A stretch of 64,000 nucleotides of DNA from Parcubacteria group bacterium. Its GTDB lineage: Bacteria; Patescibacteriota; Minisyncoccia; Moranbacterales; UBA2206. Position 1 is the stretch's first letter. Each line of letters begins with the position of its first letter. The notes beneath the pieces were generated by a model. It made no database searches, was not told where the DNA came from, and was given only the letters and a program-made list of their open reading frames with translations. This document shows positions 22,404 through 58,027 of the stretch, piece by piece. The position numbers were made by a program, and so were the translations under genes. The stretch covers positions 25,586-89,585 of the forward strand of contig JBAZUU010000003.1 of the NCBI GenBank assembly GCA_041661275.1, read 5' to 3'.

Positions 22404-22475
22404 GCCGAAGTAGCTCAATGGTAGAGCAGCGCTCTTGTAAAGCGAAGGTTGGGGGTTCAAGTCCTCTCTTCGGCT
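22404..22475 (+). tRNA. tRNA-Thr (anticodon TGT)
   Basis: Manual fold. Acceptor gccgaag/cttcggc. D-arm gctc-aatggta-gagc. Anticodon loop cttgtaa. T-arm ggggg-ttcaagt-cctct. No encoded CCA. Confidence 0.7.
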
Positions 22476-22493
22476 CGTTAAAATAAAAATAAA

Positions 22494-22892
22494 ATGCACA
22501 TAAAAACAAAAGGATATATTGCAGAAATGTATGTAACGGCGCGGCTAATTGAAGACGGATGGCGAGTGTTGCATCCAATCGGAGAAAATAATCGGTATGA
22601 TCTGGTTGCTGAACGCGACGGAAAATTTATCAGAATCCAGGTTAAATATGTGACACCTAAAAAAGGTGTTTTGGATGTAAATTGCAGAAGTAGTAATAAT
22701 TGGTCAGTTTTGCATTATTCAGCTAAGGAAATTGATGTTATAGCAGCTTATAATGCGCAAACCAGAGATATCTATTACATACCAGTTTCAAAAATAAATA
22801 GAAGTTTGATAAAATTAAGAATATTTCCAACAAAAAACAACCAGAAGATAAATATTAATTCAGCAGAAAAATTTTTAAAATTAGAATATTAA
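22494..22892 (+). CDS. YraN-like (UPF0102) PD-(D/E)xK endonuclease family protein
   Basis: GYIAEMYVTARLIEDGWRVLHPIGENNRYDLVAERDGKFIRIQVKY matches the YraN pattern (G..aE..a...L...G..il.....GEIDLIa.dg...FVEVKtR). The gene is embedded in the tRNA cluster. Confidence 0.5.
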   Translation: MHIKTKGYIAEMYVTARLIEDGWRVLHPIGENNRYDLVAERDGKFIRIQVKYVTPKKGVLDVNCRSSNNWSVLHYSAKEIDVIAAYNAQTRDIYYIPVSKINRSLIKLRIFPTKNNQKININSAEKFLKLEY

Positions 22893-22897
22893 TATAT

Positions 22898-22980
22898 GGG
22901 TGTGTCGCATAGTGGCAATTGCTCCTGACTGTAAATCAGGCGTCCTACGGACTTCGCAGGTTCGAGTCCTGCCGCACCCA
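22898..22980 (+). tRNA. tRNA-Tyr (anticodon GTA, long variable arm)
   Basis: Acceptor gggtgtg/cgcaccc. Anticodon stem-loop cctga-ctgtaaa-tcagg. Variable arm cgtcctacggacttcg. T-arm gcagg-ttcgagt-cctgc. Confidence 0.8.
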
Positions 22981-23013
22981 CATAAAATAAATAGTTTGCC
23001 GTTGTTTCGATGT

Positions 23014-23088
23014 CGGGATTGCCGAGATAGCTCAGTTGGTAGTCGCCTCATCGGCGACCTGCCGAAGAGGCAGGAGCACGTCCTTGCC
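23014..23088 (+). pseudogene. Disrupted tRNA-Gly(GCC)-like 5' half: intact D-arm, 31-nt insertion, sequence through anticodon GCC, then truncated (no T-arm or 3' acceptor)
   Basis: gccgagaTAGCTCAGTTGGTAG[tcgcctcatcggcgacctgccgaagaggcag]GAGCACGtCCTTGCCt matches tRNA-Gly(GCC) up to position 36, then diverges. No TTCRA T-loop before the next tRNA. Confidence 0.35.
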
Positions 23089-23102
23089 TGATTTCGTTTA
23101 AT

Positions 23103-23174
23103 GCCCAGGTAGTTCAGTGGCAGAACGCTTCCATGGTAAGGAAGAGGTCGAGAGTCCGATTCTCTCCCTGGGCT
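23103..23174 (+). tRNA. tRNA-Thr (anticodon GGT)
   Basis: Acceptor gcccagg/cctgggc. D-arm gttc-agtggca-gaac. Anticodon stem-loop cttcc-atggtaa-ggaag. T-arm gagag-tccgatt-ctctc. Confidence 0.75.
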
Positions 23175-23273
23175 CAAGTTTAATAAAATTAATTGTATCC
23201 CTCATCCGTCTCCGACTATCCGTCGGAGCCACCTTCTCCCAGAGGGAGAAGGGGATTTGAAGGGACTGAATAT

Positions 23274-23429
23274 ATGGCGCGAGAAAATTTGGTGAAAATG
23301 CGATGCTCCGATTGTAAAAGTATCAATCATTTCACAACCAGAAACAAGAAAAAAATCAAAGAGAAATTGGAACTAAAAAAGTTCTGCAAAAAATGCCGGA
23401 AAAATACCGTGCACAAAGAGATGAAATAA
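23274..23429 (+). CDS. rpmG: 50S ribosomal protein L33
   Basis: MARENLVKMRCSDCKSINHFTTRNKKKIKEKLELKKFCKKCRKNTVHKEMK is the L33 zinc-ribbon pattern. ORF track 23193 has extra upstream residues. Confidence 0.8.
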   Translation: MARENLVKMRCSDCKSINHFTTRNKKKIKEKLELKKFCKKCRKNTVHKEMK

Positions 23430-23473
23430 GTGAGTGTCCGCCTTCGCTCTTTTCGAGCTTCGGCGGGACGAAG

Positions 23474-23547
23474 GCGGGATTCGTACAGTGGTAGTACATC
23501 GGTCTCCAAAACCGACGACGTAGGTTCGATTCCTACATCCCGTGCCA
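23474..23547 (+). tRNA. tRNA-Trp (anticodon CCA, CCA end encoded)
   Basis: Acceptor gcgggat/atcccgt. D-arm gtac-agtggtag-tac. Anticodon stem-loop tcggt-ctccaaa-accga. T-arm gtagg-ttcgatt-cctac. Discriminator g, then cca. Confidence 0.8.
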
Positions 23548-45782: not shown

Positions 45783-47114
45783 ATGTTAAAAGTACTGAAG
45801 ATGTCAATGATTTTGGTTTGCTCGATTTTTTTTGTCACGTCAGTCGATGCCGGCGGCAAGCCGGAAAACAGGCCGGCTCCAGCGCCAAGAGCAGCTCCTG
45901 CGCCTCGACAACAAGCGCCAAGACAGCAGATGGCACCAAGGCAACAAGCGCCAAGACAGCAGATGGCACCAAGGCAACAAATGGCGCCAAGGCAAGCGCC
46001 CCAGCAGCGTCCTCAGATGCAGCAGCAACGTCCACAGGGTTTCGGGCAACAGAAATCCTTCGGCAATCAGGGATCTGCTGGCAATAGATTTGGCAACCAG
46101 GGAGCCAATGATCGAGGTAATAGATTCGGTCAGCAGGGATCCGGAAAAGCCGGTAGTACAGGAAGTAGATTTGGCAACCGGGGATCCGACGGTAGCAAAT
46201 TCAGTCAGCAAGGAACTGGCAAGTCTGGCGACAAAACCAGTAGCAAATTTGACCATCAAGGTGCCCAGGGAACTGGAAAGGCCGGTAGTAAATTTGGCCA
46301 GCAAGGAACTGGTAAAGCCGACAGTAGATTTGACAGGCAAAAAACCGGAAAATCTGGCAACAAGCTTGGAAAAACCGGTGAAAAATCCAGTGTCCAGGGT
46401 GCTGGCAAAGGTAAGCAGCCTGACACGGGAAAAATCGCCTCGGACAAAAACAAGCCGGGTGGCGAGAAGATCGGCGGTAAGAATCAGCCGATTGCCGGAA
46501 AACCATCTATGGATGGCAAAAAGCCTATGGACGGAAGAATGTCCGGCCAGAAAATGAACAGACCCAACAGATCCGAGCTGGGCGAGAAAATGAAGAGATC
46601 GCCCAACAAAGAGGCTCTTCGCGACGCGAAGATGGGGCGAAAAGCCGAGCGCGCGAAATTCAGGGACGATCCTAAGCATCACAGACTCAGAGAGCATGAG
46701 CACTCGATGGTGCGCAGTAGCTTTGAATCGCATTCCTGGAGTTACTCAGAATATTCCTACACCTCCACCACTTTTTATGAATCATATGGATATGCACCAG
46801 CACCGTGGTGCTTCGAACTGGCGCCGTATTACGGCGTTTGGGACACAACGTATCTTGGATTCGTTGTAGCCAATGCCGTCGAAATGGAAAGTTCCATTTT
46901 TTATTACCATCACAGAGGGGAAGAGGAGTTGATGGCATGGCGCGCAGAAATGGATCGATTGGCTCAGCAGGATGCTGAACTGGCCGCGCAACTAGCGGTG
47001 CTGGATGAACAAGCGCAGCTGCTGGCAAGCCAAGGCATTGCGGTCAACCCAAACTATGTTCCTGATGCTCCTGTTTTTGCTCCGGAAATTGTGGAGCAAA
47101 TGCAATTAGAATAA
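45783..47114 (+). CDS. Secreted low-complexity repeat protein (APRQQ and FGQQGTGK repeats)
   Basis: Signal peptide MLKVLKMSMILVCSIFFVTSVDA. Tandem peptide repeats. GC-rich relative to the window. Confidence 0.55.
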   Translation: MLKVLKMSMILVCSIFFVTSVDAGGKPENRPAPAPRAAPAPRQQAPRQQMAPRQQAPRQQMAPRQQMAPRQAPQQRPQMQQQRPQGFGQQKSFGNQGSAGNRFGNQGANDRGNRFGQQGSGKAGSTGSRFGNRGSDGSKFSQQGTGKSGDKTSSKFDHQGAQGTGKAGSKFGQQGTGKADSRFDRQKTGKSGNKLGKTGEKSSVQGAGKGKQPDTGKIASDKNKPGGEKIGGKNQPIAGKPSMDGKKPMDGRMSGQKMNRPNRSELGEKMKRSPNKEALRDAKMGRKAERAKFRDDPKHHRLREHEHSMVRSSFESHSWSYSEYSYTSTTFYESYGYAPAPWCFELAPYYGVWDTTYLGFVVANAVEMESSIFYYHHRGEEELMAWRAEMDRLAQQDAELAAQLAVLDEQAQLLASQGIAVNPNYVPDAPVFAPEIVEQMQLE

Positions 47115-48165: not shown

Positions 48166-49434
48166 ATGAAAATAGATAAGGAACAATTAGTGAGAATAAT
48201 CGATTTTTGGCGGGAAAACGCGCGGGAAAATAACCTTTTTGACCGCGATGTTTTGAATGGAATCGATTTGAAAAGCAAAGAAATCATTGATTTGGTCGGG
48301 CCGAGACGAAGCGGAAAATCGTCGGTATTAAAACTGATTATAAAAAAAATGGCGCTGGGAAACGATTTCTTATATCTCAATTTTGAGGATCCGTTTTTTG
48401 TTGAAAATAACAATCCTCAAATAATAGAAGAGTTTGTAAATGTTTACAGGGAGTATTTTGACGCCAAGGTAAAATATCTTTTTCTTGATGAAATACAAGA
48501 AATAAAAAATTGGGAAAAAGCGGTGAGAAAATTAAGAGACGGGGGAAAATACAAAATATTCATAACCGGTTCCTCATCCAAATTATTGAGTCGGGAGCTG
48601 GCAACTCTTCTGACCGGACGGCACCTGTCATATCGCGTTTTTCCTCTTTCTTTTTCTGAATTTCTAAAATTTGAAAAGGTGGAAATAAGGAACAAGCGGG
48701 ATCTGATTCTTAAGGATAAATTGTTGCAAAAGAAATTTGATCAATATCTTGATCAAGGAGGATTTCCTGAACCGGTTTTGGAAAAAAATCATGAGCTCCT
48801 CAAAAATTATTTTTTTGATATTTTGGAAAAAGATATCATGGCTCGCCATGAAGTGAGGGACAGGATAACACTGGAAAAGATGGCTGTTTTTCTTTTGACT
48901 AATTCGGCTAAAATCGTTACCCAGGAGTCTTTGAAAAATAATTTTAATATTTCTTTTGAAACTGTTTCAACTTATCTGGAATATTTCAAAAACGCGTTTT
49001 TATTGTTTGATCTTATGCAATTCTCATATTCTCTCAAAAAACAACAGAAGGCTTTCAAGAAATTTTATGCCGTGGATACCGGACTGGCCGGAAACGTGAG
49101 CTTCAGGTTTTCCGAAGATAAAGGCAGAATATTGGAAAACGCGGTTTTTTTGGAATTAAAAAGAAGAGGCGGTGAAGTCTATTACTATAAGACGAAGGAG
49201 GGGCTGGAAACAGACTTTTATGTGAAAAACTCGGCGGGCGGAAATCTTATTCAGGTTTCCTGGAGTATTAGTGAAAAAGACGTCAAGGACAGGGAGATAA
49301 AAAACATATTCGCCGCCATGGATGAGTCGAAAATAAAAAAAGGTCTGATGCTTACTTATGGGGAAAATGATATAATAAAAAAAGATGGCAAGGAAATAAG
49401 AGTAATGCCGGCGTATCGCTGGATGCTGGAGTAG
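48166..49434 (+). CDS. ATP-binding protein, DUF4143/AAA_14 family
   Basis: Walker A GPRRSGKSS and Walker B LFLDEIQ are typical of archaeal-type ATPase (DUF4143) proteins. Confidence 0.6.
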   Translation: MKIDKEQLVRIIDFWRENARENNLFDRDVLNGIDLKSKEIIDLVGPRRSGKSSVLKLIIKKMALGNDFLYLNFEDPFFVENNNPQIIEEFVNVYREYFDAKVKYLFLDEIQEIKNWEKAVRKLRDGGKYKIFITGSSSKLLSRELATLLTGRHLSYRVFPLSFSEFLKFEKVEIRNKRDLILKDKLLQKKFDQYLDQGGFPEPVLEKNHELLKNYFFDILEKDIMARHEVRDRITLEKMAVFLLTNSAKIVTQESLKNNFNISFETVSTYLEYFKNAFLLFDLMQFSYSLKKQQKAFKKFYAVDTGLAGNVSFRFSEDKGRILENAVFLELKRRGGEVYYYKTKEGLETDFYVKNSAGGNLIQVSWSISEKDVKDREIKNIFAAMDESKIKKGLMLTYGENDIIKKDGKEIRVMPAYRWMLE

Positions 49435-49469
49435 TTCAATTTTATTAATAGGAGTGCTATAATACAACT

Positions 49470-49587
49470 ATGCAGGAATTTTGGCAGAAAAAGATAAAAA
49501 TACATATAATATTTGAGTCGCTGGAGAGTTATAACGAAAGCGTATATTTTTAGATTTTGAAAGCCGTCCATTTGGACGGTTTTTTTG
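49470..49587 (+). ncRNA. Candidate small RNA (copy 1 of repeated element) with own promoter and intrinsic terminator
   Basis: Promoter ttcaat-N17-tataat (49437-49463). Terminator ccgtcc-attt-ggacgg plus ttttttt (49564-49587). About 85% identical to 55435-55551. Confidence 0.45.
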
Positions 49588-49669
49588 TAAAAAAACAGAC
49601 AATTTAGAAGTTGACAAATAAACCAAACAGGTATATAATAACCAGTTATCATAACGTCTTTAAATAACT

Positions 49670-51583: not shown

Positions 51584-51668
51584 ATTTGCTCAATTTTAAG
51601 GGTCGAAGTATTGCGTGATTATTGCGCGATTCTTGCGCGATTCATGAAAATCGTGTATAATAGAGATA

Positions 51669-52723
51669 TGCTAAAACCACAATATAAACTCACCAACAAA
51701 ATACTTAAAAACCTGACGGATATCGCTGAAGCAAAGGGGATTATTGAAAAAGCTAAACTTCTCCCCAGGCACGAACTAAAGCTCAAGCGTCAGGCGATGA
51801 TAAGGATGTCTCATAGTTCCACGGCTATTGAAGGCAATATTTTGGACATCCGCCAGGTTGAGGCTCTCTATGCTAATAAGAAAATAGACGCACCGGATCG
51901 GGATATTTATGAAGTAAAAAACTATTTGGAAGCTCTGAAATATATAGAGAAGTTTGTCAAAAGTGGAAAGCCGATTTCAGTAAAAGTGTTACTCAAAATT
52001 CATTCGCTGGTAACCAACAAAACTTTGCCAGTCGAGCAGTCGGGTCATTTTCGCCAAAGTCCGGTCTATGTCGTCAAAAGAAGATTGGGATTTCCGGACG
52101 AAATAGTTTATGCCGGGCCTGTCGCGGCGAATGTTCCTTATCTTTGTAACGATTTGATTGAGTGGATAAACAAAAGCGAAAAAGAAGAAACAAATCCGGT
52201 TATTGTGGCCGGAGTAACTCATTTGGAAATTGCGGCCATCCATCCGTTCAGCGATGGTAACGGAAGAACGGCCAGAGCTTTGGCTACTTTGATATTATAT
52301 AAGCGAGGCTATGATTTTAGACATTTATTCGCTTTGGAAGATTATTATAATAAAGATCTGCCAAGCTATTACAAGGCCATAAATGTCGGTAAAAATTATG
52401 AAGAGAGAAAGACAGAAATTACCTATTGGCTGGAATATTTTGTGGAGGGTTTTAGAGACGAAATTATGAGCGTCAAAAATCAAGTTACAACACTAGCTCT
52501 TAAAAAGGTAGATAAAAATATTGGAAGTCAGGTGTATCTAACGCCAAAGCAACAGCAGATATTGGATTTTGTTGATCAGCTGGGAAGAATAAAGGTTAGT
52601 GATGTAGTGGATATTTTGAAATGTCCTCAAAGAACGGCTCAGCTGGAACTACAGAAACTCAAAAAGCTGGGGATTATCAAACAAGTCGGTAAAGGTAAGG
52701 CGACTTATTACAAGTTGAAGTAA
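51669..52723 (+). CDS. Fic family protein with C-terminal winged-helix domain
   Basis: HPFSDGNGRTAR Fic motif. Start ATG 51669 (MLKPQYK) is preceded by tataat and a triplicated ttgcgcgatt repeat. Confidence 0.75.
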
Positions 52724-52791: not shown

Positions 52792-53542
52792 AAAAGGGGT
52801 CAAGTACCTTTTCTATCAAACAGTAATATGAGCAATATGATATACTCAACACATGGCTAGAATTCCAAGAAATCCAATAGGTGATGTTGCCTATCATGTG
52901 CTTAATCGTGCCAATGGGCGAGAGCAGATTTTTAATAAAGAAAAAGATTACGAAGCTTTCATAAAAATCATTCAAGAAGCCAAGGAAAAATATCCAGTGG
53001 ATATTTTTACCCTTTGCCTCATGTCCAATCATTGGCATTTTTCTTTGAGTGCCAAAAAAGGAGAAAATATTTCCAATTTCATGCGCTGGGTAACTCACAC
53101 CCATACTCAACGTTATCATTCCCATTACAAAACTATCGGTTACGGCCATCTCTATCAGGGTAGATATAAATCTTTCCCTATTGAAAAAGATAACCATTTT
53201 CTCCAAGTTTGCCGCTATATTGAAAGAAATCCGATCAGGGCTGGATTAGTAAGAAAAGCTCAGAATTGGAAATGGTCAAGTCTTTGGATAAGAAAAAATG
53301 GAACCAAAGAACAAAAAGCATTATTATCAGACTGGCCGGTAGAAATGCCGATTGGATATCTGGAATGGGTTAATGTTTTAGATAAAAACGAAGAAGACAA
53401 GCTAAACAAAATACGATATGCTCTCAAAAGAGGGTGCCCCTATGGCGAAGATAGCTGGGTTAAGAAAACAGCAAAAAAACTAAACTTAATTTCCACATTA
53501 ATTCCCAGAGGCAGACCGAAAAAAGGTACCTGACCCCTTTTT
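52792..53542. mobile_element. REP-RAYT-REP unit: IS200-like HUH Y1 transposase gene flanked by inverted REP-like hairpins
   Basis: Left aaaaggggtcaagtaccttttc (52792-52813). Right gaaaaaaggtacctgaccccttttt (53518-53542) is its imperfect reverse complement. Each is itself a small hairpin. Confidence 0.55.
52853..53533 (+). CDS. REP-associated tyrosine transposase (RAYT) / IS200-like Y1 HUH transposase
   Basis: HuH motif LMSNHWH and catalytic Tyr region YQGRYKS. 226 aa with a C-terminal extension typical of RAYTs. Confidence 0.65.
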   Translation: MARIPRNPIGDVAYHVLNRANGREQIFNKEKDYEAFIKIIQEAKEKYPVDIFTLCLMSNHWHFSLSAKKGENISNFMRWVTHTHTQRYHSHYKTIGYGHLYQGRYKSFPIEKDNHFLQVCRYIERNPIRAGLVRKAQNWKWSSLWIRKNGTKEQKALLSDWPVEMPIGYLEWVNVLDKNEEDKLNKIRYALKRGCPYGEDSWVKKTAKKLNLISTLIPRGRPKKGT

Positions 53543-53554
53543 CTCTCTCCCCAA

Positions 53555-53720
53555 GAAAGCTATCATAGAGGCGTTGAAAAAAAGCGGTATTAAAAAAGGA
53601 GAAAAACTGTATGATTTAGGTGCGGGAAATGGAAGGATTTTAGTGATTGCTGAAAAAGAATTTGGCTTAAAATCAATTCTGTCCAAATTTGTTAGGATTG
53701 ATACTAGTGTATGTTTAATT
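53555..53720 (+). pseudogene. Class I SAM-dependent methyltransferase N-terminal fragment (motif I) with no start and truncated after about 55 codons
   Basis: Translation KAIIEALKKSGIKKGEKLYDLGAGNGRILVIAEKEFGLKS contains the DLGAGNG SAM-binding motif. Confidence 0.35.
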
Positions 53721-53858
53721 TAATTTTGCTGATTAATAAGTTACAAATAGGCCTGTTTATTAAACTTTATTTATTTTTTCGACCATCGAAATTAAATTAA
53801 TAACGCACTAGTCCTATAATTATTGTTAAATTCAATAAATATTATTACAATCATCAAT

Positions 53859-55181
53859 ATGCCAAATGAAATATACGCAGGTCACATCTATCCAAACGAA
53901 CTTCTTCGTCCTCCTAAAGATAATATTCCTTCATTAGAACACGTATATTTTGTTGTAGGTACAGTTATGAGTGACATTGGTAAAGGATGGCTTTCAGGTT
54001 CGATAGCTAGTACTTTAGATAATCCCCTGATAATAAAAATAGATCCGATGCTAAATCAAAGTTTTCCTGAAAACGTAGGTATCCCTATGGACAATACACA
54101 CGTAACAGATGACTTTAAAACATATCAGCGTTTAGGATTAGAGACAAAAGTTGATAACAATATCGTAATGGGACAGATATGGAGAGAATATCTAAGTCAT
54201 TCCCAAATTCCTATGCAGATAACCGAAGGATCAATTAAAAAACAGACTTATGCGGATGTGGCGGATTATTTTTCAGATAAACTACTCAATATGATTAAAT
54301 CATCTCATGCTAAAAATGTTGTAATTGAAATTGGAGGTACGCCAGTAGATTCAGAACAAGATGTACTTCCATCCACTTTCCGTTTAATGGGGATCAAGAC
54401 GAATGTTGTACCTGAGCTCATTCTTCTCTCATATTTTGAAACGAGAGAGGATAATGCTAACGATGGGAAAAAAGGTTTGAAAACTCAAATTATTCGACAA
54501 GGAATACGCGATGCAACCACAAAATATGCAGGATTACCATTAAAATCTGTATTTGTACGAAGAAGGCGCGTTTCCGAGTCAATTGTGTCTGTATCATTGC
54601 AGGATGAATTATTGAGGGTGGCATATGAGACACAAATATCTCCACAAAAATTAACACTTCTTGAAAATTATCAAGATGTTACAGAATTAATGAAATATAT
54701 ATCGGAATCTGGTATTTTTAAAGAAATTGATAAACCACTGATGGTTAGTGCATGTATCTTGGGAATACCATGTAGGTTTGATGGAGCATCAAAACCAGTG
54801 GGAGATCGAAAAATGAATGTTATTTTATCAAATGGATCTGCTTTAATTTTATGTCCTGAAATATTAGCAGGTTTACCCACACCAAGAGGACCGTATAATA
54901 TAACTTCAGGTAGTGGAGAAGATGTTTTAAATGGAATTGCAAAAGTAGTTGATAACGATGGAAATGACGTGACGGATCTATTTATAAAAGGTGCAGTAGC
55001 AACATTAAAAGCACTTATGAATAGGGGTATTAAAAAAGCATATTTACGTGAAGGTAGTCCATCATGTGGAATAAATAGAATTACTACAAAATTGGATGGA
55101 AAAGTATCTGCTATGGGTGTAACGACTGCTTTACTACAACGCTGGGGTATAGAGTGCATCTCATCTGATGCAGTTGTTTAG
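53859..55181 (+). CDS. Fusion protein: CTP synthase N-terminal (amidoligase)-like domain plus DUF523 (TudS-like, Cys-rich) domain
   Basis: N-terminus VYFVVGTVMSDIGKGWLSGSI, IIKIDPMLN and VVIEIGGTPVDSEQD parallel CTP synthase motifs. C-terminus ACILGIPCRFDGASKP...ILCPEILAGLPTPRGP matches DUF523. AT-rich codon usage. Confidence 0.45.
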   Translation: MPNEIYAGHIYPNELLRPPKDNIPSLEHVYFVVGTVMSDIGKGWLSGSIASTLDNPLIIKIDPMLNQSFPENVGIPMDNTHVTDDFKTYQRLGLETKVDNNIVMGQIWREYLSHSQIPMQITEGSIKKQTYADVADYFSDKLLNMIKSSHAKNVVIEIGGTPVDSEQDVLPSTFRLMGIKTNVVPELILLSYFETREDNANDGKKGLKTQIIRQGIRDATTKYAGLPLKSVFVRRRRVSESIVSVSLQDELLRVAYETQISPQKLTLLENYQDVTELMKYISESGIFKEIDKPLMVSACILGIPCRFDGASKPVGDRKMNVILSNGSALILCPEILAGLPTPRGPYNITSGSGEDVLNGIAKVVDNDGNDVTDLFIKGAVATLKALMNRGIKKAYLREGSPSCGINRITTKLDGKVSAMGVTTALLQRWGIECISSDAVV

Positions 55182-55434
55182 GACATATATGGATAATTCA
55201 GTAATACTTTGTAGCGCATGTTTGGGATGGAAAACATGGTGTTTTTGCAGTAGCTACTAGCGAGAAAATAACTAGCTCGGTCACTTTCTCGTTAGAACCT
55301 ACCGTATGGCAAGAGCCAAGCTATCCAGAGCCAGGAGAAATCGTTCTTCTTGGTAATCTTCGTAAGAAGCGGGCTTGATCAAAAATGAGCCACATGTGTT
55401 TGACTAACAGAGCTTGTTTTTCGTATAATACACT

Positions 55435-55551
55435 TATGCAGGAAATCAGGAATAAGAAGATAAAAATACATACAATATTCGAGTCGCTCGAGAATCAAAA
55501 CGAAAGCGTATATTTTTAGTTTTTGAAGGCCGTCCATTGGGGCGGTTTTTT
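55435..55551 (+). ncRNA. Candidate small RNA (copy 2 of repeated element) with promoter TTGACT-N18-TATAAT and intrinsic terminator
   Basis: ttgact 55399-55404 and tataat 55423-55428. Terminator gccgtcc-attg-gggcgg plus ttttttt. Its G-U replaces the A-U of copy 1, keeping the stem. Confidence 0.45.
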
Positions 55552-55573
55552 TGTCGGAAAAGATTGAGGATTG

Positions 55574-55860
55574 ACCCCGCACTAACTTTTGTTTGTTATG
55601 CATTACGTTTATATTATACAGAATGAATTAGCCGAATTATATTATGGTTGTACCGGTAATCTTAAGAAAAGATTTTTTGAGCATAACAACAATAAATCCT
55701 TTTCTACCAAAAGTCATAAGTGGAAACTGATCTATTACGAAGCATATACGGCCGAGGAAGACGCATGGAATAGAGAAAAACAGCTAAAGCAATATGGCCA
55801 AGCCCTGGGTCAGTTGAAAAGGAGACTTAAAAAATCTTTGAACAAAAGTTAGTGCGGGGT
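55574..55860. repeat. Perfect 20-bp inverted repeats (accccgcactaacttttgtt / aacaaaagttagtgcggggt) bracketing the GIY-YIG gene
   Basis: 55574-55593 and 55841-55860 are exact reverse complements. The right copy contains the stop codon. Confidence 0.6.
55598..55852 (+). CDS. GIY-YIG nuclease family protein (UPF0213/YhbQ-like)
   Basis: YVYIIQNE...YYGCTGNLKKRFFEHN is the GIY-YIG motif with conserved R and E. Confidence 0.65.
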   Translation: MHYVYIIQNELAELYYGCTGNLKKRFFEHNNNKSFSTKSHKWKLIYYEAYTAEEDAWNREKQLKQYGQALGQLKRRLKKSLNKS

Positions 55861-55927
55861 TGACAAACGGCCTTTTGCGTAGTATTATATCTAGTCAACT
55901 AAAACCGTTTGCTTTATAGAAAATATA

Positions 55928-56752
55928 ATGGAAATTTTTGAAAATAAAACAATACAGACTAAGGAGATGCTGGATTTTCATCTGGACATTAAAAAACTAA
56001 GGGAAATTCCAGTCGAAATTGATAGTTGGGCGTATAAGCAGGTAGGCAAGAAAAATGACGGGTCGTTTAAGGATAATTATCAGAATCTGGAAGTCAGGGA
56101 ATGCGGAGAAAGCCTGGTTGATATAAGCGATTTTAATTTATCAAATAAAGATTATTATTTTCAGAAGTTTTCTGGAGAAAAAGAAATTTTGGCCAAAAAA
56201 CTAGTTACCGAAAAAGTTTTTCTCAGAAAAAGTCATGCTGAACGATTAGCCAGGGCGGATAAATATTTTCGAGAAAGAGGACTGTATATTAACATTGTTT
56301 CGGGCTGGCGGCATCCAGAGTTTCAAAAAATAATCAAAGAAGAATATGCGAAAAAATTTGGACAAGAAAAAGCGGATAGATTATTTGCTTCTGTTGACAG
56401 AAGAGTTCCAGCTCCGCATTCCACAGGCGCTTCCTTTGATGCTGAGTTACGAGATTTATCCTCAAGTAAAAAGATAAAAATGAACGTTTGTTTTAATAAC
56501 GAAGTGATTCATGGCCTGTATTGGGCAGAAGAACTATTAAAAGAAGGGAAACTCGATAATATTAGTGCGGAGGCTGTGAGAAATCGAAGAATTCTTTATC
56601 ATGGCTTGTGTTCAAAAGGCGTGGTTTTTGAAAAAAAAGAAGATCTCTTTGTTGCCCATCCGGGGGAATACTGGCATTATGGCGATGGCGATACATTAAG
56701 CTCCTTTTTAAAGAAAAAAAAGTTTATAAAATACGGCATAGTTTATCCGTGA
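55928..56752 (+). CDS. M15 family D-Ala-D-Ala dipeptidase (VanX/DdpX-like)
   Basis: SGWR...PHSTGASFD...EYWHYGDGD follows the VanX zinc-binding pattern (SxHxxGxAxD, WEWWH). Confidence 0.6.
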   Translation: MEIFENKTIQTKEMLDFHLDIKKLREIPVEIDSWAYKQVGKKNDGSFKDNYQNLEVRECGESLVDISDFNLSNKDYYFQKFSGEKEILAKKLVTEKVFLRKSHAERLARADKYFRERGLYINIVSGWRHPEFQKIIKEEYAKKFGQEKADRLFASVDRRVPAPHSTGASFDAELRDLSSSKKIKMNVCFNNEVIHGLYWAEELLKEGKLDNISAEAVRNRRILYHGLCSKGVVFEKKEDLFVAHPGEYWHYGDGDTLSSFLKKKKFIKYGIVYP

Positions 56753-56777
56753 TTTAATAAATTATAAGCTAATAATT

Positions 56778-57929
56778 ATGAGTAAAAAAGGAAAAAAGTA
56801 TTTTAACAATAGCGTAGTTAATCCTATACATACTTCTGCTACGTACTACTTTGAAGACACAAAGCAGGTTGTTAGATATCATAACAAAAAGGAAAAAGTT
56901 GGTAGATATGGGCGGTATGATAATCCTAATTGGCTAGAAGTAGAAGAAAAATTAGCTAAACTGGATCTTTGCGAAAGCGCTCTTATTTTTCCTTCCGGAA
57001 TGAGCGCGATTGCCACAACGTTAATGAGTCTCAGTGAAAAAGGAAAAAGAATAATTTATACAGGAAAAGGATATCGAAACATACGAAACTTATGCGGTAA
57101 TATTCTAACTAAATTTGGAGTAGATGCTATTTCGTTGTCGCCAGCCAATTCAGAAAAATTCATGGCTGATTTTAAAAAATACTATAATGATAATACTAGT
57201 GTCGTATTTTTAGAGATTCCATCAAATCCTCATCTTCATCTCGTTGATTTGGAAAAAATTAAAAAAATAATCAACAAAAATACTTTGTTAATCGTCGATA
57301 GTACATTTTCTTCTCCCATAAATTTTCAACCTGTTGAGTGGGGCGCTGATATAGTTATTCATAGTTGCGGAAAATATATAGGTGGTCACGCTGATTTGAT
57401 GGCAGGAAGCGTTGCGGGAAAAAAGGAAATTATCGAAAAAATTAGAAATTATAGAAATGTAATGGGAAGTATTGCTGAATCCCATAGTGCATATTTATTG
57501 AATCGAAGCATTGCGACATTGAAAATGAGGATTGAATATTTGAATCAGTCGGGGCTTAAGTTAGCCAACTTTTTGGAAAATCATCCGAAAGTCAAAAAAG
57601 TTTTTTATTCCGGATTGCCGTCATATTTCAATCGAGATCTTGCGGAAAAATATTTAAAGGGTCATGGTGGAGTGGTAACATTTGAATTGGATTTGTCGAA
57701 AGAGAAAACGGCTAAATTTGTAGATTCACTGAAAATTCCATATATGGGAACCAACTTTGGATCATGCCATTCTATGGTCGAGCAATGCTCAATTTTCACT
57801 TATTATAATGAAACAAAAAAGGTTAGGGACGATTTGGGGATTAGCGACACCTTAATCAGGTATAGTATTGGATTTGAGAATGTAGAAGATATCATAAATG
57901 ATATCAGTAAAGTGTTGGAGAAAATTTAG
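56778..57929 (+). CDS. Cys/Met metabolism PLP-dependent enzyme (cystathionine gamma-synthase/beta-lyase/methionine gamma-lyase family)
   Basis: YGRYDNPNW, SGMSAI and PLP-lysine region SCGKYIGGH. AT-rich codon usage. Confidence 0.75.
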   Translation: MSKKGKKYFNNSVVNPIHTSATYYFEDTKQVVRYHNKKEKVGRYGRYDNPNWLEVEEKLAKLDLCESALIFPSGMSAIATTLMSLSEKGKRIIYTGKGYRNIRNLCGNILTKFGVDAISLSPANSEKFMADFKKYYNDNTSVVFLEIPSNPHLHLVDLEKIKKIINKNTLLIVDSTFSSPINFQPVEWGADIVIHSCGKYIGGHADLMAGSVAGKKEIIEKIRNYRNVMGSIAESHSAYLLNRSIATLKMRIEYLNQSGLKLANFLENHPKVKKVFYSGLPSYFNRDLAEKYLKGHGGVVTFELDLSKEKTAKFVDSLKIPYMGTNFGSCHSMVEQCSIFTYYNETKKVRDDLGISDTLIRYSIGFENVEDIINDISKVLEKI

Positions 57930-58027
57930 GCCATCGGATTTGAGATGGAAAATATGCATTTAATGATAGAGCGGGGTTTTTGCAGTATCGTCGTTGTTTA
58001 ACAATCTGTTCAGAAAGGAAGTGGCAT

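Follow-up and report, generated by a model that had tools for sequence, protein, structure and literature searches.

The stretch of DNA analysed here (the window) comprises 64,000 nucleotides of the genome of a Parcubacteria group bacterium (contig JBAZUU010000003.1, positions 25,586 to 89,585), with a GC content of about 39%. On the forward strand, where all the genes between 52.8 and 58 kb lie, it carries a gene that joins a domain resembling the amidoligase part of CTP synthase to a TudS domain. The gene is real, rare and biochemically intriguing; as judged from its sequence, it encodes an intact two-domain enzyme that keeps the catalytic residues of both halves and whose function is a predicted one. 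The gene and its two parts are:

53859-55181, forward strand: fusion gene, CTP-synthase amidoligase-like domain followed by a TudS domain, 440 aa
53949-54740, forward strand: glutaminase-less CTP-synthase amidoligase (ALase)-like domain, identified by Pfam, family profile, Foldseek and residue table
54741-55166, forward strand: TudS/DUF523 [4Fe-4S] desulfidase domain, identified by Pfam (103.7 bits), PDB entry 6z92, Foldseek and invariant columns

The open reading frame (ORF) runs without interruption from 53823 to 55181 on the forward strand (452 aa). Its probable true start is the ATG at 53859, which gives a protein of 440 aa and is favoured because the N-termini of the homologues and the NCBI/JGI protein (P0001) agree with it. 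The NCBI entries for this protein (MFA6047792.1/MFA6485203.1) are titled '2-thiouracil desulfurase family protein'. When the 452-aa ORF was compared with Pfam, CTP_synth_N matched residues 43-306 with 39.4 bits (gathering cut-off 26.1) over profile positions 4-263 of 265, and 2-thiour_desulf (DUF523/TudS) matched residues 307-448. A profile of 15 family members searched against PDB sequences gave TudS (E = 3e-33) and then CTP synthases only (best E = 5e-14). The AlphaFold2 model of the protein (predicted local distance difference test, pLDDT, 83.3; predicted TM-score, pTM, 0.77) was compared with known structures domain by domain, as described below. Taken together, the Pfam score, the family profile, the fold match and the TudS assignment of the C-terminal domain bear out the first-pass annotation, which had read the gene as a CTP-synthase-N::DUF523 fusion. 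No description of a CTP synthase-like/TudS pairing was found in the searchable literature on TudS, CTP synthase-like proteins, conflict systems with NUDIX, 4-thiouridine, anti-phage signalling and Pycsar.

In CTP synthase, the amidoligase domain uses ATP to phosphorylate O4 of UTP, which lets a nucleophile displace the phosphate. The model of the N-terminal domain superimposes in Foldseek on the synthetase domains of CTP synthases with a root mean square deviation (rmsd) of 3.3-3.8 Å and a TM-score of 0.74-0.78. For a residue-by-residue comparison, 24 N-domains of the family were aligned with E. coli PyrG, the reference being identical to PDB 1s1m, residues 1-286. The equivalents of E. coli K18 (P-loop), K40, D72, D42, E140, G142, G143, E149 and R211 are kept in all 24 sequences, those of D147 and K187 in 22 of them; T188 is also conserved in the N-domain of the window protein, and the EIGGTxGDxE motif is present. 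In the structures of the E. coli enzyme, K18 is reported to be the P-loop lysine and D72 and E140 the Mg2+ ligands (Endrizzi et al.).

Other positions have changed. The P-loop signature is SDIGKGW, as compared to SSLGKG in PyrG (S15 replaced by Asp), and several residues that contact UTP or ATP in CTP synthase are altered (K189 to Q/R, Q192 to R, K239 to P/E, D240 to N). The segment 47-58, which forms the ammonia tunnel and gate, is shortened; of the 24 members, 21 have a proline opposite H57 and 23 a gap opposite P54. No match to a class-I glutamine amidotransferase domain, with its Cys-His-Glu triad, was found in the fusion protein, whose C-terminal 146 residues are TudS, and the PyrG equivalog TIGR00337 scored 27.9 bits against a cut-off of 462.75. 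The loss of the ammonia gate (H57 replaced by Pro, 47-58 shortened) fits an enzyme that has no glutaminase partner. The domain thus looks like a working ATP-dependent phosphoryl-transfer or ligase domain that, to go by its residues, is no longer fed ammonia by a glutaminase.

The C-terminal domain is closely related to characterised TudS. It matches PDB 6z92 with E = 4e-24 as a single sequence, as compared to the value given above for the family profile, and superimposes on 6z92/6z96 in Foldseek with an rmsd of 2.1 Å, a TM-score of 0.81 and 41% identity. In TudS, a [4Fe-4S] cluster held by three cysteines binds the sulfur of 4-thiouracil nucleotides, and the C4=S group is hydrolysed to C4=O (PMC10611767). 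The cluster ligands Cys10, Cys43 and Cys104 correspond to C299, C332 and C403 (440-aa numbering), and the catalytic Glu45, Ser101 and Ser103 to E334, S400 and S402; all six are invariant across the family, their roles being those reported for TudS (PMC10611767). The phosphate-binding Arg17 has its equivalent in R306 of the window protein and is found in most family members, and the region of Tyr110 is altered in the clade to which the window protein belongs.

The first-pass annotation had raised the possibility of a missed frameshift. That the fusion is such an artefact, or an assembly join of two neighbouring genes, or a decaying pseudogene, can practically be dismissed: both halves do occur elsewhere as separate adjoining genes, and a split ORF was seen in one related contig (L022), but the 440-aa protein is found with 100% identity in independent NCBI, JGI, ENA and Logan assemblies, the junction between the domains is conserved among more than 10 divergent fusion homologues or clusters, and the catalytic residues are all intact. 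The fusion protein, like the product of the M15 gene described below, is also 100% identical to a protein of a metagenome-assembled genome labelled 'Parcubacteria group bacterium'.

The same fusion was searched for in other genomes, as the first-pass annotation had proposed. An exhaustive HMMER search of 1.84e9 representatives found about 10 clusters of fusions and about 25 clusters of the amidoligase-like protein alone (240-300 aa). In a word-indexed search of 5.8e9 clusters, both domains were present in 17 of 27 proteins. Loci of the family number 3 among 185,579 species genomes and 12 in a metagenome scan, and searches with the amidoligase-like domain of IMG/VR viral contigs, GenBank phages and PLSDB plasmids gave no relatives. 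The closest non-identical homologue of the fusion is 54-57% identical. In a rough neighbour-joining tree, the members of the family group together in a clade, separated from E. coli PyrG by a long branch, and the fusions fall into at least 3-4 clades.

Other TudS architectures were also encountered: a TtuA/NcsA-type [4Fe-4S] PP-loop thiolase fused to TudS (P0109; PDB 6scy, E = 2e-19; TudS, E = 5e-23), a TudS domain that follows a 218-aa N-terminal domain, by eye SpoU/TrmH methyltransferase-like (P0164), a protein with two tandem TudS domains (P0040) and a NUDIX::TudS fusion (P0024).

The genes and elements that surround the fusion gene in the window are:

48166-49434, forward strand: AAA_14/DUF4143 ATPase (PADLOC PDC-S01, a candidate defence family, 359 bits; Pfam)
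51611-52723, forward strand: Fic-domain protein (PADLOC SoFic single-gene defence model, 186.9 bits; Pfam Fic)
52853-53533, forward strand: REP-associated tyrosine transposase (RAYT; Pfam Y1_Tnp, 72 bits; NCBIfam REP_Tyr_transpos, 72.3 bits, cut-off 80)
53535-53690, forward strand: probable methyltransferase N-terminal remnant of about 50 residues (translation ...KKGEKLYDLGAGNGRILVIAEKEFG..., motif I DLGAGNGR; weak Pfam matches, E about 0.006)
55400-55561, forward strand: small-RNA-like cassette, copy B, made of a promoter-like site and a repeat of about 140 nt, with an intrinsic terminator at its end
55589-55852, forward strand: small GIY-YIG protein, 87 aa (Pfam GIY-YIG, 48.6 bits)
55928-56752, forward strand: gene of the M15 (VanX/DdpX-like) D-Ala-D-Ala dipeptidase family, assigned from motifs and homologues
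56778-57929, forward strand: Cys/Met-metabolism pyridoxal phosphate (PLP) enzyme (Pfam, 351 bits; under every NCBIfam equivalog cut-off)

The PDC-S01-type ATPase and the SoFic gene are upstream context and not part of the fusion enzyme. PADLOC gave no match for the fusion, M15, PLP, GIY-YIG or RAYT genes. With these two defence-type genes at its upstream end, the region between 48 and 58 kb looks like a variable or defence island. The RAYT gene is bracketed by a 21-nt inverted repeat (95%) at 52792-52812 and 53521-53541, and the GIY-YIG gene by a 14-nt inverted repeat (13/14) at 55573-55586 and 55848-55861, which suggests that each of them is a discrete mobile unit. The stretch 53535-53690 is probably a pseudogene fragment, the N-terminus of a class I S-adenosylmethionine-dependent methyltransferase that has no continuation. 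This remnant was compared with the methyltransferases that lie beside two fusion homologues (L019/L020), and no match was found.

The small-RNA-like cassette is present in two copies. The repeat proper of copy B lies at 55424-55561 and that of copy A at 49458-49595 (forward strand), the two forming a direct repeat with 85% identity. Copy B is preceded by a near-consensus sigma-70-type promoter-like site at 55400-55429 (TTGACT-18-TATAAT, 11/12), the TATAAT box of which is retained in copy A. At the end of both copies of about 140 nt stands a GC-rich hairpin with a run of T behind it, and the folding z-scores of the copies are only -1.6 and -1.8. At gathering scores, Rfam recognised four tRNAs only in the window and none of its families in the block, the repeat of about 140 nt included; the tRNAs form a cluster (Thr, Tyr, Thr, Trp) at 22404-23547. 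In appearance, the repeat resembles a small-RNA gene that has been duplicated or a mobile cassette made of promoter and terminator.

The product of the M15 gene scored 22.3 bits with Pfam Peptidase_M15, under the cut-off of 27; the zinc motifs HSTGASFD (H-x6-D) and EYWH (E-x-x-H) are visible, and close homologues carry PF01427 and go under the name of D-alanyl-D-alanine dipeptidase in JGI. The PLP enzyme belongs to the family of cystathionine gamma-lyase/synthase or methionine gamma-lyase. In Moranbacteria contigs (L032/L033/L034), the PLP and M15 genes adjoin in the order opposite to that of the window, without the fusion gene and beside a divergent PALP (cysteine synthase/CBS-type) gene. Since the two genes are neighbours there without the fusion, and since the M15 homologues of other Candidate Phyla Radiation (CPR) bacteria are 65-78% identical, the M15 and PLP genes are, to judge from these comparisons, a separate conserved CPR gene pair and bystanders of the fusion gene.

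The GC content at third codon positions (GC3) of the fusion gene is 0.21, the lowest of the 63 ORFs of the window (mean 0.40, z = -2.6). The corresponding z-values are -1.4 for the PLP gene, -1.2 for the M15 gene and -0.4 for the GIY-YIG gene, and in other parts of the window several genes are just as rich in A/T. At the other extreme, the ORF at 45783-47114 is GC-rich (0.51) and contains 33-nt repeats spaced 75-93 nt. In all nine window-clade loci compared (L001, L003, L004, L006, L008, L009, L018, L019, L020), the GC3 of the fusion gene is below that of its neighbours (z from -0.2 to -2.4), which fits a gene that moves between hosts. The low GC3 may reflect weak selection on codons or horizontal transfer, more than once, from donors rich in A/T.

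The gene neighbourhood of the homologues was read in the fusion loci of the window clade (L003/L010, L004/L005, L006/L007/L011, L008, L009, L018, L019 and L020/L023), and no M15 or PLP neighbour was found among their annotated genes. What lies beside the fusion varies from locus to locus:

L003: integrase
L004: MazG-like gene, S24 peptidase, MmeI-type restriction-modification gene
L006: NUDIX gene (MutT/NudG-type, after the fusion), MFS transporters, HAD hydrolase
L008: stand-alone TudS, HAD hydrolase, HEPN/ResIII genes
L009: ABC/HlyD transport genes
L018: GNAT and glutamine amidotransferase genes
L019: stand-alone TudS, methyltransferase

The amidotransferase of L018 (261-965) is a stand-alone class-I enzyme (NCBIfam PRK08250, 344 bits) encoded 1.1 kb upstream of the fusion, with the GNAT gene lying between the two on the opposite strand. 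It could supply ammonia in trans, as a single occurrence.

These data bear on the view, taken in the first-pass annotation, that 53700-57930 is one coherent foreign block. In its strongest form, this would be a single operon gained by horizontal transfer, whose PLP enzyme and VanX-like peptidase cooperate with the fusion enzyme, for example by supplying sulfur. The genes are in fact co-directional and contiguous, all have a GC3 under the average, and a PLP enzyme of the Cys/Met family could in principle release H2S. However, none of the fusion homologues has M15 or PLP neighbours, the PLP and M15 genes adjoin in Moranbacteria without the fusion, the M15 protein is much better conserved in other CPR bacteria than the fusion is in its best non-identical homologue (65-78% vs. 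54-57%), and the promoter/terminator cassette and the GIY-YIG unit lie between the genes. We consider a single operon very unlikely. As far as sequence comparison goes, the region is a mosaic of at least two unrelated units, the fusion gene and the M15 and PLP pair, with small mobile or regulatory elements interspersed.

The first-pass annotation had thus listed the GIY-YIG, VanX-like, PLP and RAYT genes correctly, and its observation of a marked A/T preference at third positions holds for the fusion gene, but not for the other genes of the block, which are only mildly AT-rich. The coherence of the block was not upheld, nor was the small-RNA-like repeat as its boundary, given that the copy at 55424-55561 lies inside it, between the fusion gene and the GIY-YIG gene; at the 3' edge, near 57930, the repeat search found nothing repeated. 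On the whole, the observation was confirmed in part, and the interpretation attached to it is partly supported.

The two domains are associated also where they are encoded separately. In most loci with a separate amidoligase-like gene, a TudS gene follows directly 3' on the same strand, and in L012, L014, L015, L024 and L030 the two co-directional genes are separated by gaps of only -4 to +15 nt. Of 17 distinct loci, about 13 have the two either fused or side by side; stand-alone amidoligase-like members without a TudS neighbour are those of L016 and L026-L028. The usual third partner is a NUDIX hydrolase. It has a gene of its own upstream in L014, L030 and L025 and downstream in L016 and L006; in P0022/L015 and L024, it makes up the N-terminal end of the amidoligase-like protein itself. 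The genes that truly recur beside the amidoligase-like enzyme are those of NUDIX and TudS. On the evidence of gene order and fusion, the evolutionary coupling of the amidoligase-like protein, TudS and NUDIX is strong.

Two further loci have a different composition. In L012 (8001-14773 of a 793-kb contig), the genes of a 449-aa CTP synthase-like protein, a 265-aa protein that contains TudS and a 1537-aa ARMT1-like/GlnD-like protein come one after another, and the cluster adjoins relA/spoT and ftsZ. In L021 (384-3657), the CTP synthase-like gene comes after that of an 831-aa protein with a CHAT-protease domain, and the contig ends there.

In at least four contigs and, in part, in a fifth, the separate genes belong to an operon of five genes, which encode in this order a protein of about 950-1,120 aa, a NUDIX hydrolase, the CTP synthase-like protein, TudS and a variable effector:

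L014, 1-4960: last genes TIR_2 and FGE-sulfatase
L015, 236-7111: last genes QatA-like KAP NTPase and FGE-sulfatase
L024, 2-4644: last gene 2TM/PycTM effector (PADLOC 158 and 100 bits; Pfam PycTM 41 bits)
L030, 1161-8198: last genes QatA-like KAP NTPase and FGE-sulfatase; complete five-gene operon, on an 8.9-kb contig (JAANSX010265677.1)
L031, 2015-5848: partial operon

The large proteins are 31-39% identical between contigs and, over their whole length, gave no Pfam or PDB match. Their central region contains motifs of class III nucleotide cyclases (DIsNYs, RIGLH and GNGIxxAxRI...QILCSQ). Pfam Guanylate_cyc recognised one of four large proteins just over threshold (23.4 vs. 21.9 bits, E = 5e-5), and one hhalign comparison against seven cyclase domains, prompted by this hypothesis, was collinear over 137 columns (P = 0.0075); the catalytic residues of the cyclases are complete in one member only. 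No cyclase was found by the PADLOC PycC models or by PDB profile searches, for which both the entire protein and its central part were used, and the AlphaFold model, built on a three-sequence alignment, has a pLDDT of 39.9. A class III cyclase-like region in this protein may therefore be proposed only tentatively.

No PycC or CD-NTase model of PADLOC matches the operon, and none of its models matches the core genes. A conserved core combined with a swappable TIR, KAP or 2TM effector is typical of defence or conflict systems, and the operon, on which the literature searches gave no paper, may be regarded as a candidate defence system of a Pycsar-like kind that is apparently undescribed. None of these partner genes is adjacent to the fusion gene of the window, which is a solo, fused version located beside other defence genes.

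In the known enzymes, on whose analogy the fusion is read here, both domains act on C4 of the uracil ring. The pairing brings together, at one and the same atom, the ATP-dependent activation of the C4 carbonyl and the handling of sulfur by an iron-sulfur site, and this points to an undescribed chemistry at position 4 of pyrimidine nucleotides. The suggestion of the first-pass annotation that pyrimidine or thio-nucleotide modification is involved was a reasonable one. As to the surroundings, neither pyrG nor thiI was found in the 64-kb window by a search that was aimed at CTP synthase-like and TudS matches only.

Our leading proposal for the predicted reaction, which we favour tentatively and hold for plausible more than for probable, is a sequential conversion of a 4-thiouridine nucleotide to a uridine and then to a cytidine nucleotide. 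In the first step, the TudS domain would desulfurise 4-thio-UTP or 4-thio-UMP, coming from tRNA turnover or from scavenged nucleotides, to the uridine nucleotide. In the second step, the amidoligase domain would phosphorylate O4 of UTP with ATP and aminate it with free ammonia to give CTP. NUDIX, MazG or HAD partners would shuttle the triphosphate and monophosphate forms, and the net effect would be the sanitation of thio-pyrimidines together with their salvage into the normal U/C pool of a salvage-dependent organism. This proposal rests on the known activity of TudS, on its proposed role, which is to keep 4-thio-UTP out of RNA (PMC10611767), on the house-cleaning neighbours and on the salvage lifestyle of the CPR. 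The neighbours in question are a MutT/NudG-type NUDIX (L006), a MazG-like gene (L004), HAD hydrolases (L006, L008) and, as a fusion with TudS, the NUDIX domain of P0024. The domain and fold matches, the conserved catalytic residues of both domains, the close coupling of their genes, the loss of the ammonia gate and the amidotransferase gene of L018 also speak for it.

Several considerations weigh against the sequential conversion. The intermediate, UTP, is stable and abundant and gives no obvious reason for a tight coupling of the two domains or for their repeated fusion. The substrate of the amidoligase domain may not be UTP at all, since several residues that contact UTP and ATP differ from those of CTP synthase. 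Moreover, TudS prefers 4-thio-UMP to 4-thio-UTP by about 10-fold (PMC10611767), whereas the chemistry of CTP synthase needs the triphosphate. Sanitation does not explain the operons in which the two enzymes occur with a cyclase-like protein and with TIR, KAP or 2TM/PycTM effectors, and the family, with about 10 fusion clusters among 1.84e9 representatives and 3 loci in 185,579 genomes, is far too rare for a general salvage route.

Some of these observations would be accounted for if the protein were an ATP-dependent 4-thio-UTP synthase, which would be analogous in mechanism to TtuA, NcsA and archaeal ThiI. The amidoligase domain would phosphorylate O4 of UTP, and TudS, sitting in the place of the glutaminase, would deliver hydrosulfide, either from a [4Fe-5S] cluster or as channelled H2S; the role of the NUDIX, MazG, HAD and stand-alone TudS neighbours would then be to break down a toxic or signalling product or to keep it in check. 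The order of the domains is that of CTP synthase, with the nucleophile donor at the C-terminus, and the ammonia tunnel and gate segment is lost. A labile 4-phospho-UTP intermediate would call for the tight coupling seen in the family, where fusions occur in several clades and the separate genes lie -4 to +15 nt apart, and the hydrolase neighbours and the operons with signalling effectors would both find an explanation. The thiolase::TudS protein P0109 is an independent fusion of comparable kind, so that the fusion of TudS with an ATP-dependent enzyme for the activation of a base carbonyl has come about twice. The TudS cluster is also reported to bind sulfide, forming [4Fe-5S], without being inhibited by it (PMC10611767). 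On the other hand, the hydrolytic residues Glu45, Ser101 and Ser103 are invariant, as in a desulfidase, even if the reverse reaction could use them too; the two active sites are enclosed in separate folds, and a direct attack by the cluster would need a composite site. There is no conserved sulfur-donor gene nearby, the PLP enzyme of the window belonging to the other gene pair. We also know of no biosynthesis of a free 4-thio nucleotide. A synthase of this kind, which is the main alternative, is possible, though on balance unlikely.

A wider formulation takes in the operons. The CTP synthase-like protein and TudS may together form a new nucleotide-modifying enzyme, either an ATP-driven C4 thiolase of free UTP or one that introduces another substituent at C4, which with NUDIX would make or edit the signal of an undescribed Pycsar-like anti-phage system, namely that of the five-gene operon; the gene of the window would then be its mobile, stand-alone fused version. 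We regard this combination as an unlikely one.

It is rather unlikely, in our opinion, that the amidoligase-like domain carries out no amination and is a targeting or regulatory nucleotide-binding module, which directs TudS to nucleoside triphosphates or gates it with ATP or CTP. A precedent is found in RudS, where a fused DUF1722 redirects TudS to tRNA (PMC11417400); the altered ATP- and UTP-contact residues point the same way, and the name chosen by NCBI covers the TudS family only. A mere binding module, however, would not be expected to keep the full catalytic set (P-loop Lys, K40, the Mg2+ carboxylates and the GG oxyanion motif) invariant in 24 divergent members, and members that stand alone without a TudS neighbour exist (L016, L026-L028).

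Finally, the nucleophile might be another amine, i.e., a small molecule or the amino group of a protein. The product would be an N4-substituted cytidine nucleotide or a nucleobase conjugate, acting as a signal or signal modifier in a Pycsar-like defence, with TudS and NUDIX editing or resetting the signal and the window gene being a stripped-down relative. This would agree with the five-gene operon of L014, L015, L024, L030 and, in part, L031, with its effectors of the signalling-defence type and its large first protein with a tentative class III cyclase-like region; type IV CBASS, too, carries nucleotide-modifying accessory genes (QueC/TGT). The idea is nevertheless wholly inferential: no candidate amine donor is at hand, the locus of the window has neither cyclase-like nor effector genes, and the core genes match no PADLOC model, so that we find it highly doubtful.

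If the sequential conversion were the true one, the fusion would represent a new, dedicated route from 4-thiouridine nucleotides to the normal U/C pool, which bears on the fate of modified nucleotides in salvage-dependent CPR bacteria. If, instead, the protein were a thiolating enzyme, it would provide the first synthesis of a thiolated free nucleotide. Independently of this choice, the complete operon of L030 is a concrete, clonable candidate for a new defence system with a modified-pyrimidine component.

The fusion protein may be compared with several known systems. With PyrG (EC 6.3.4.2) it shares the fold of the N-domain, a CTP_synth_N match over the full profile and the equivalents of the catalytic residues. 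In the place of the class-I glutaminase domain of PyrG, however, it has TudS, and the segment of the ammonia tunnel and gate (47-58, with H57) is both shorter and altered. The fusion protein cannot be counted as a PyrG, yet by its domain matches it is a genuine member of both the CTP_synth_N domain family and the TudS family.

With TudS (PDB 6Z92/6Z96), the fold, the Cys ligands, Glu45, Ser101 and Ser103 are common to both. Whereas the TudS enzymes characterised so far are monomers of about 150-170 aa that stand alone (PMC10611767), here TudS is the C-terminal part of a 440-aa protein. Among the TudS forms reported so far, the stand-alone one accounts for 58.9% of the sequences and fusions with DUF1722 for 40.1%, CTP synthase not being mentioned (PMC11417400). 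The eraser of tRNA s4U8, RudS (TudS-DUF1722), resembles the fusion protein in that TudS has a fused partner, which in RudS sets the specificity (PMC11417400). The partner in our case is an N-terminal ATP-dependent amidoligase and not DUF1722, to which Pfam gave no match, nor was a tRNA-binding element evident in the Pfam analysis.

TtuA, NcsA and archaeal ThiI offer a purely functional analogy, as they combine the ATP-dependent activation of a uracil carbonyl with a three-Cys [4Fe-4S] cluster that is able to carry a terminal sulfide. These enzymes act on tRNA through an adenylating PP-loop domain, the active site of which also houses the cluster, whereas the fusion protein has a P-loop domain of the phosphorylating kind and a separate TudS fold, and lacks the SGGxDS motif.

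The resemblance to Pycsar and type IV CBASS concerns the relatives of the window gene, which occur in operons with 2TM/PycTM, TIR or KAP-NTPase effectors and a tentative cyclase-like protein. The locus of the window differs from Pycsar in having no adjacent cyclase-like gene or effector, and the operons in matching no PycC or CD-NTase model. Pycsar, as reported by Tal et al. in 2021, comprises two-gene systems without CTP synthase-like, TudS or NUDIX genes. With respect to all these systems, the architecture of the fusion is new and is built from known parts, each of its halves being a well-studied enzyme.

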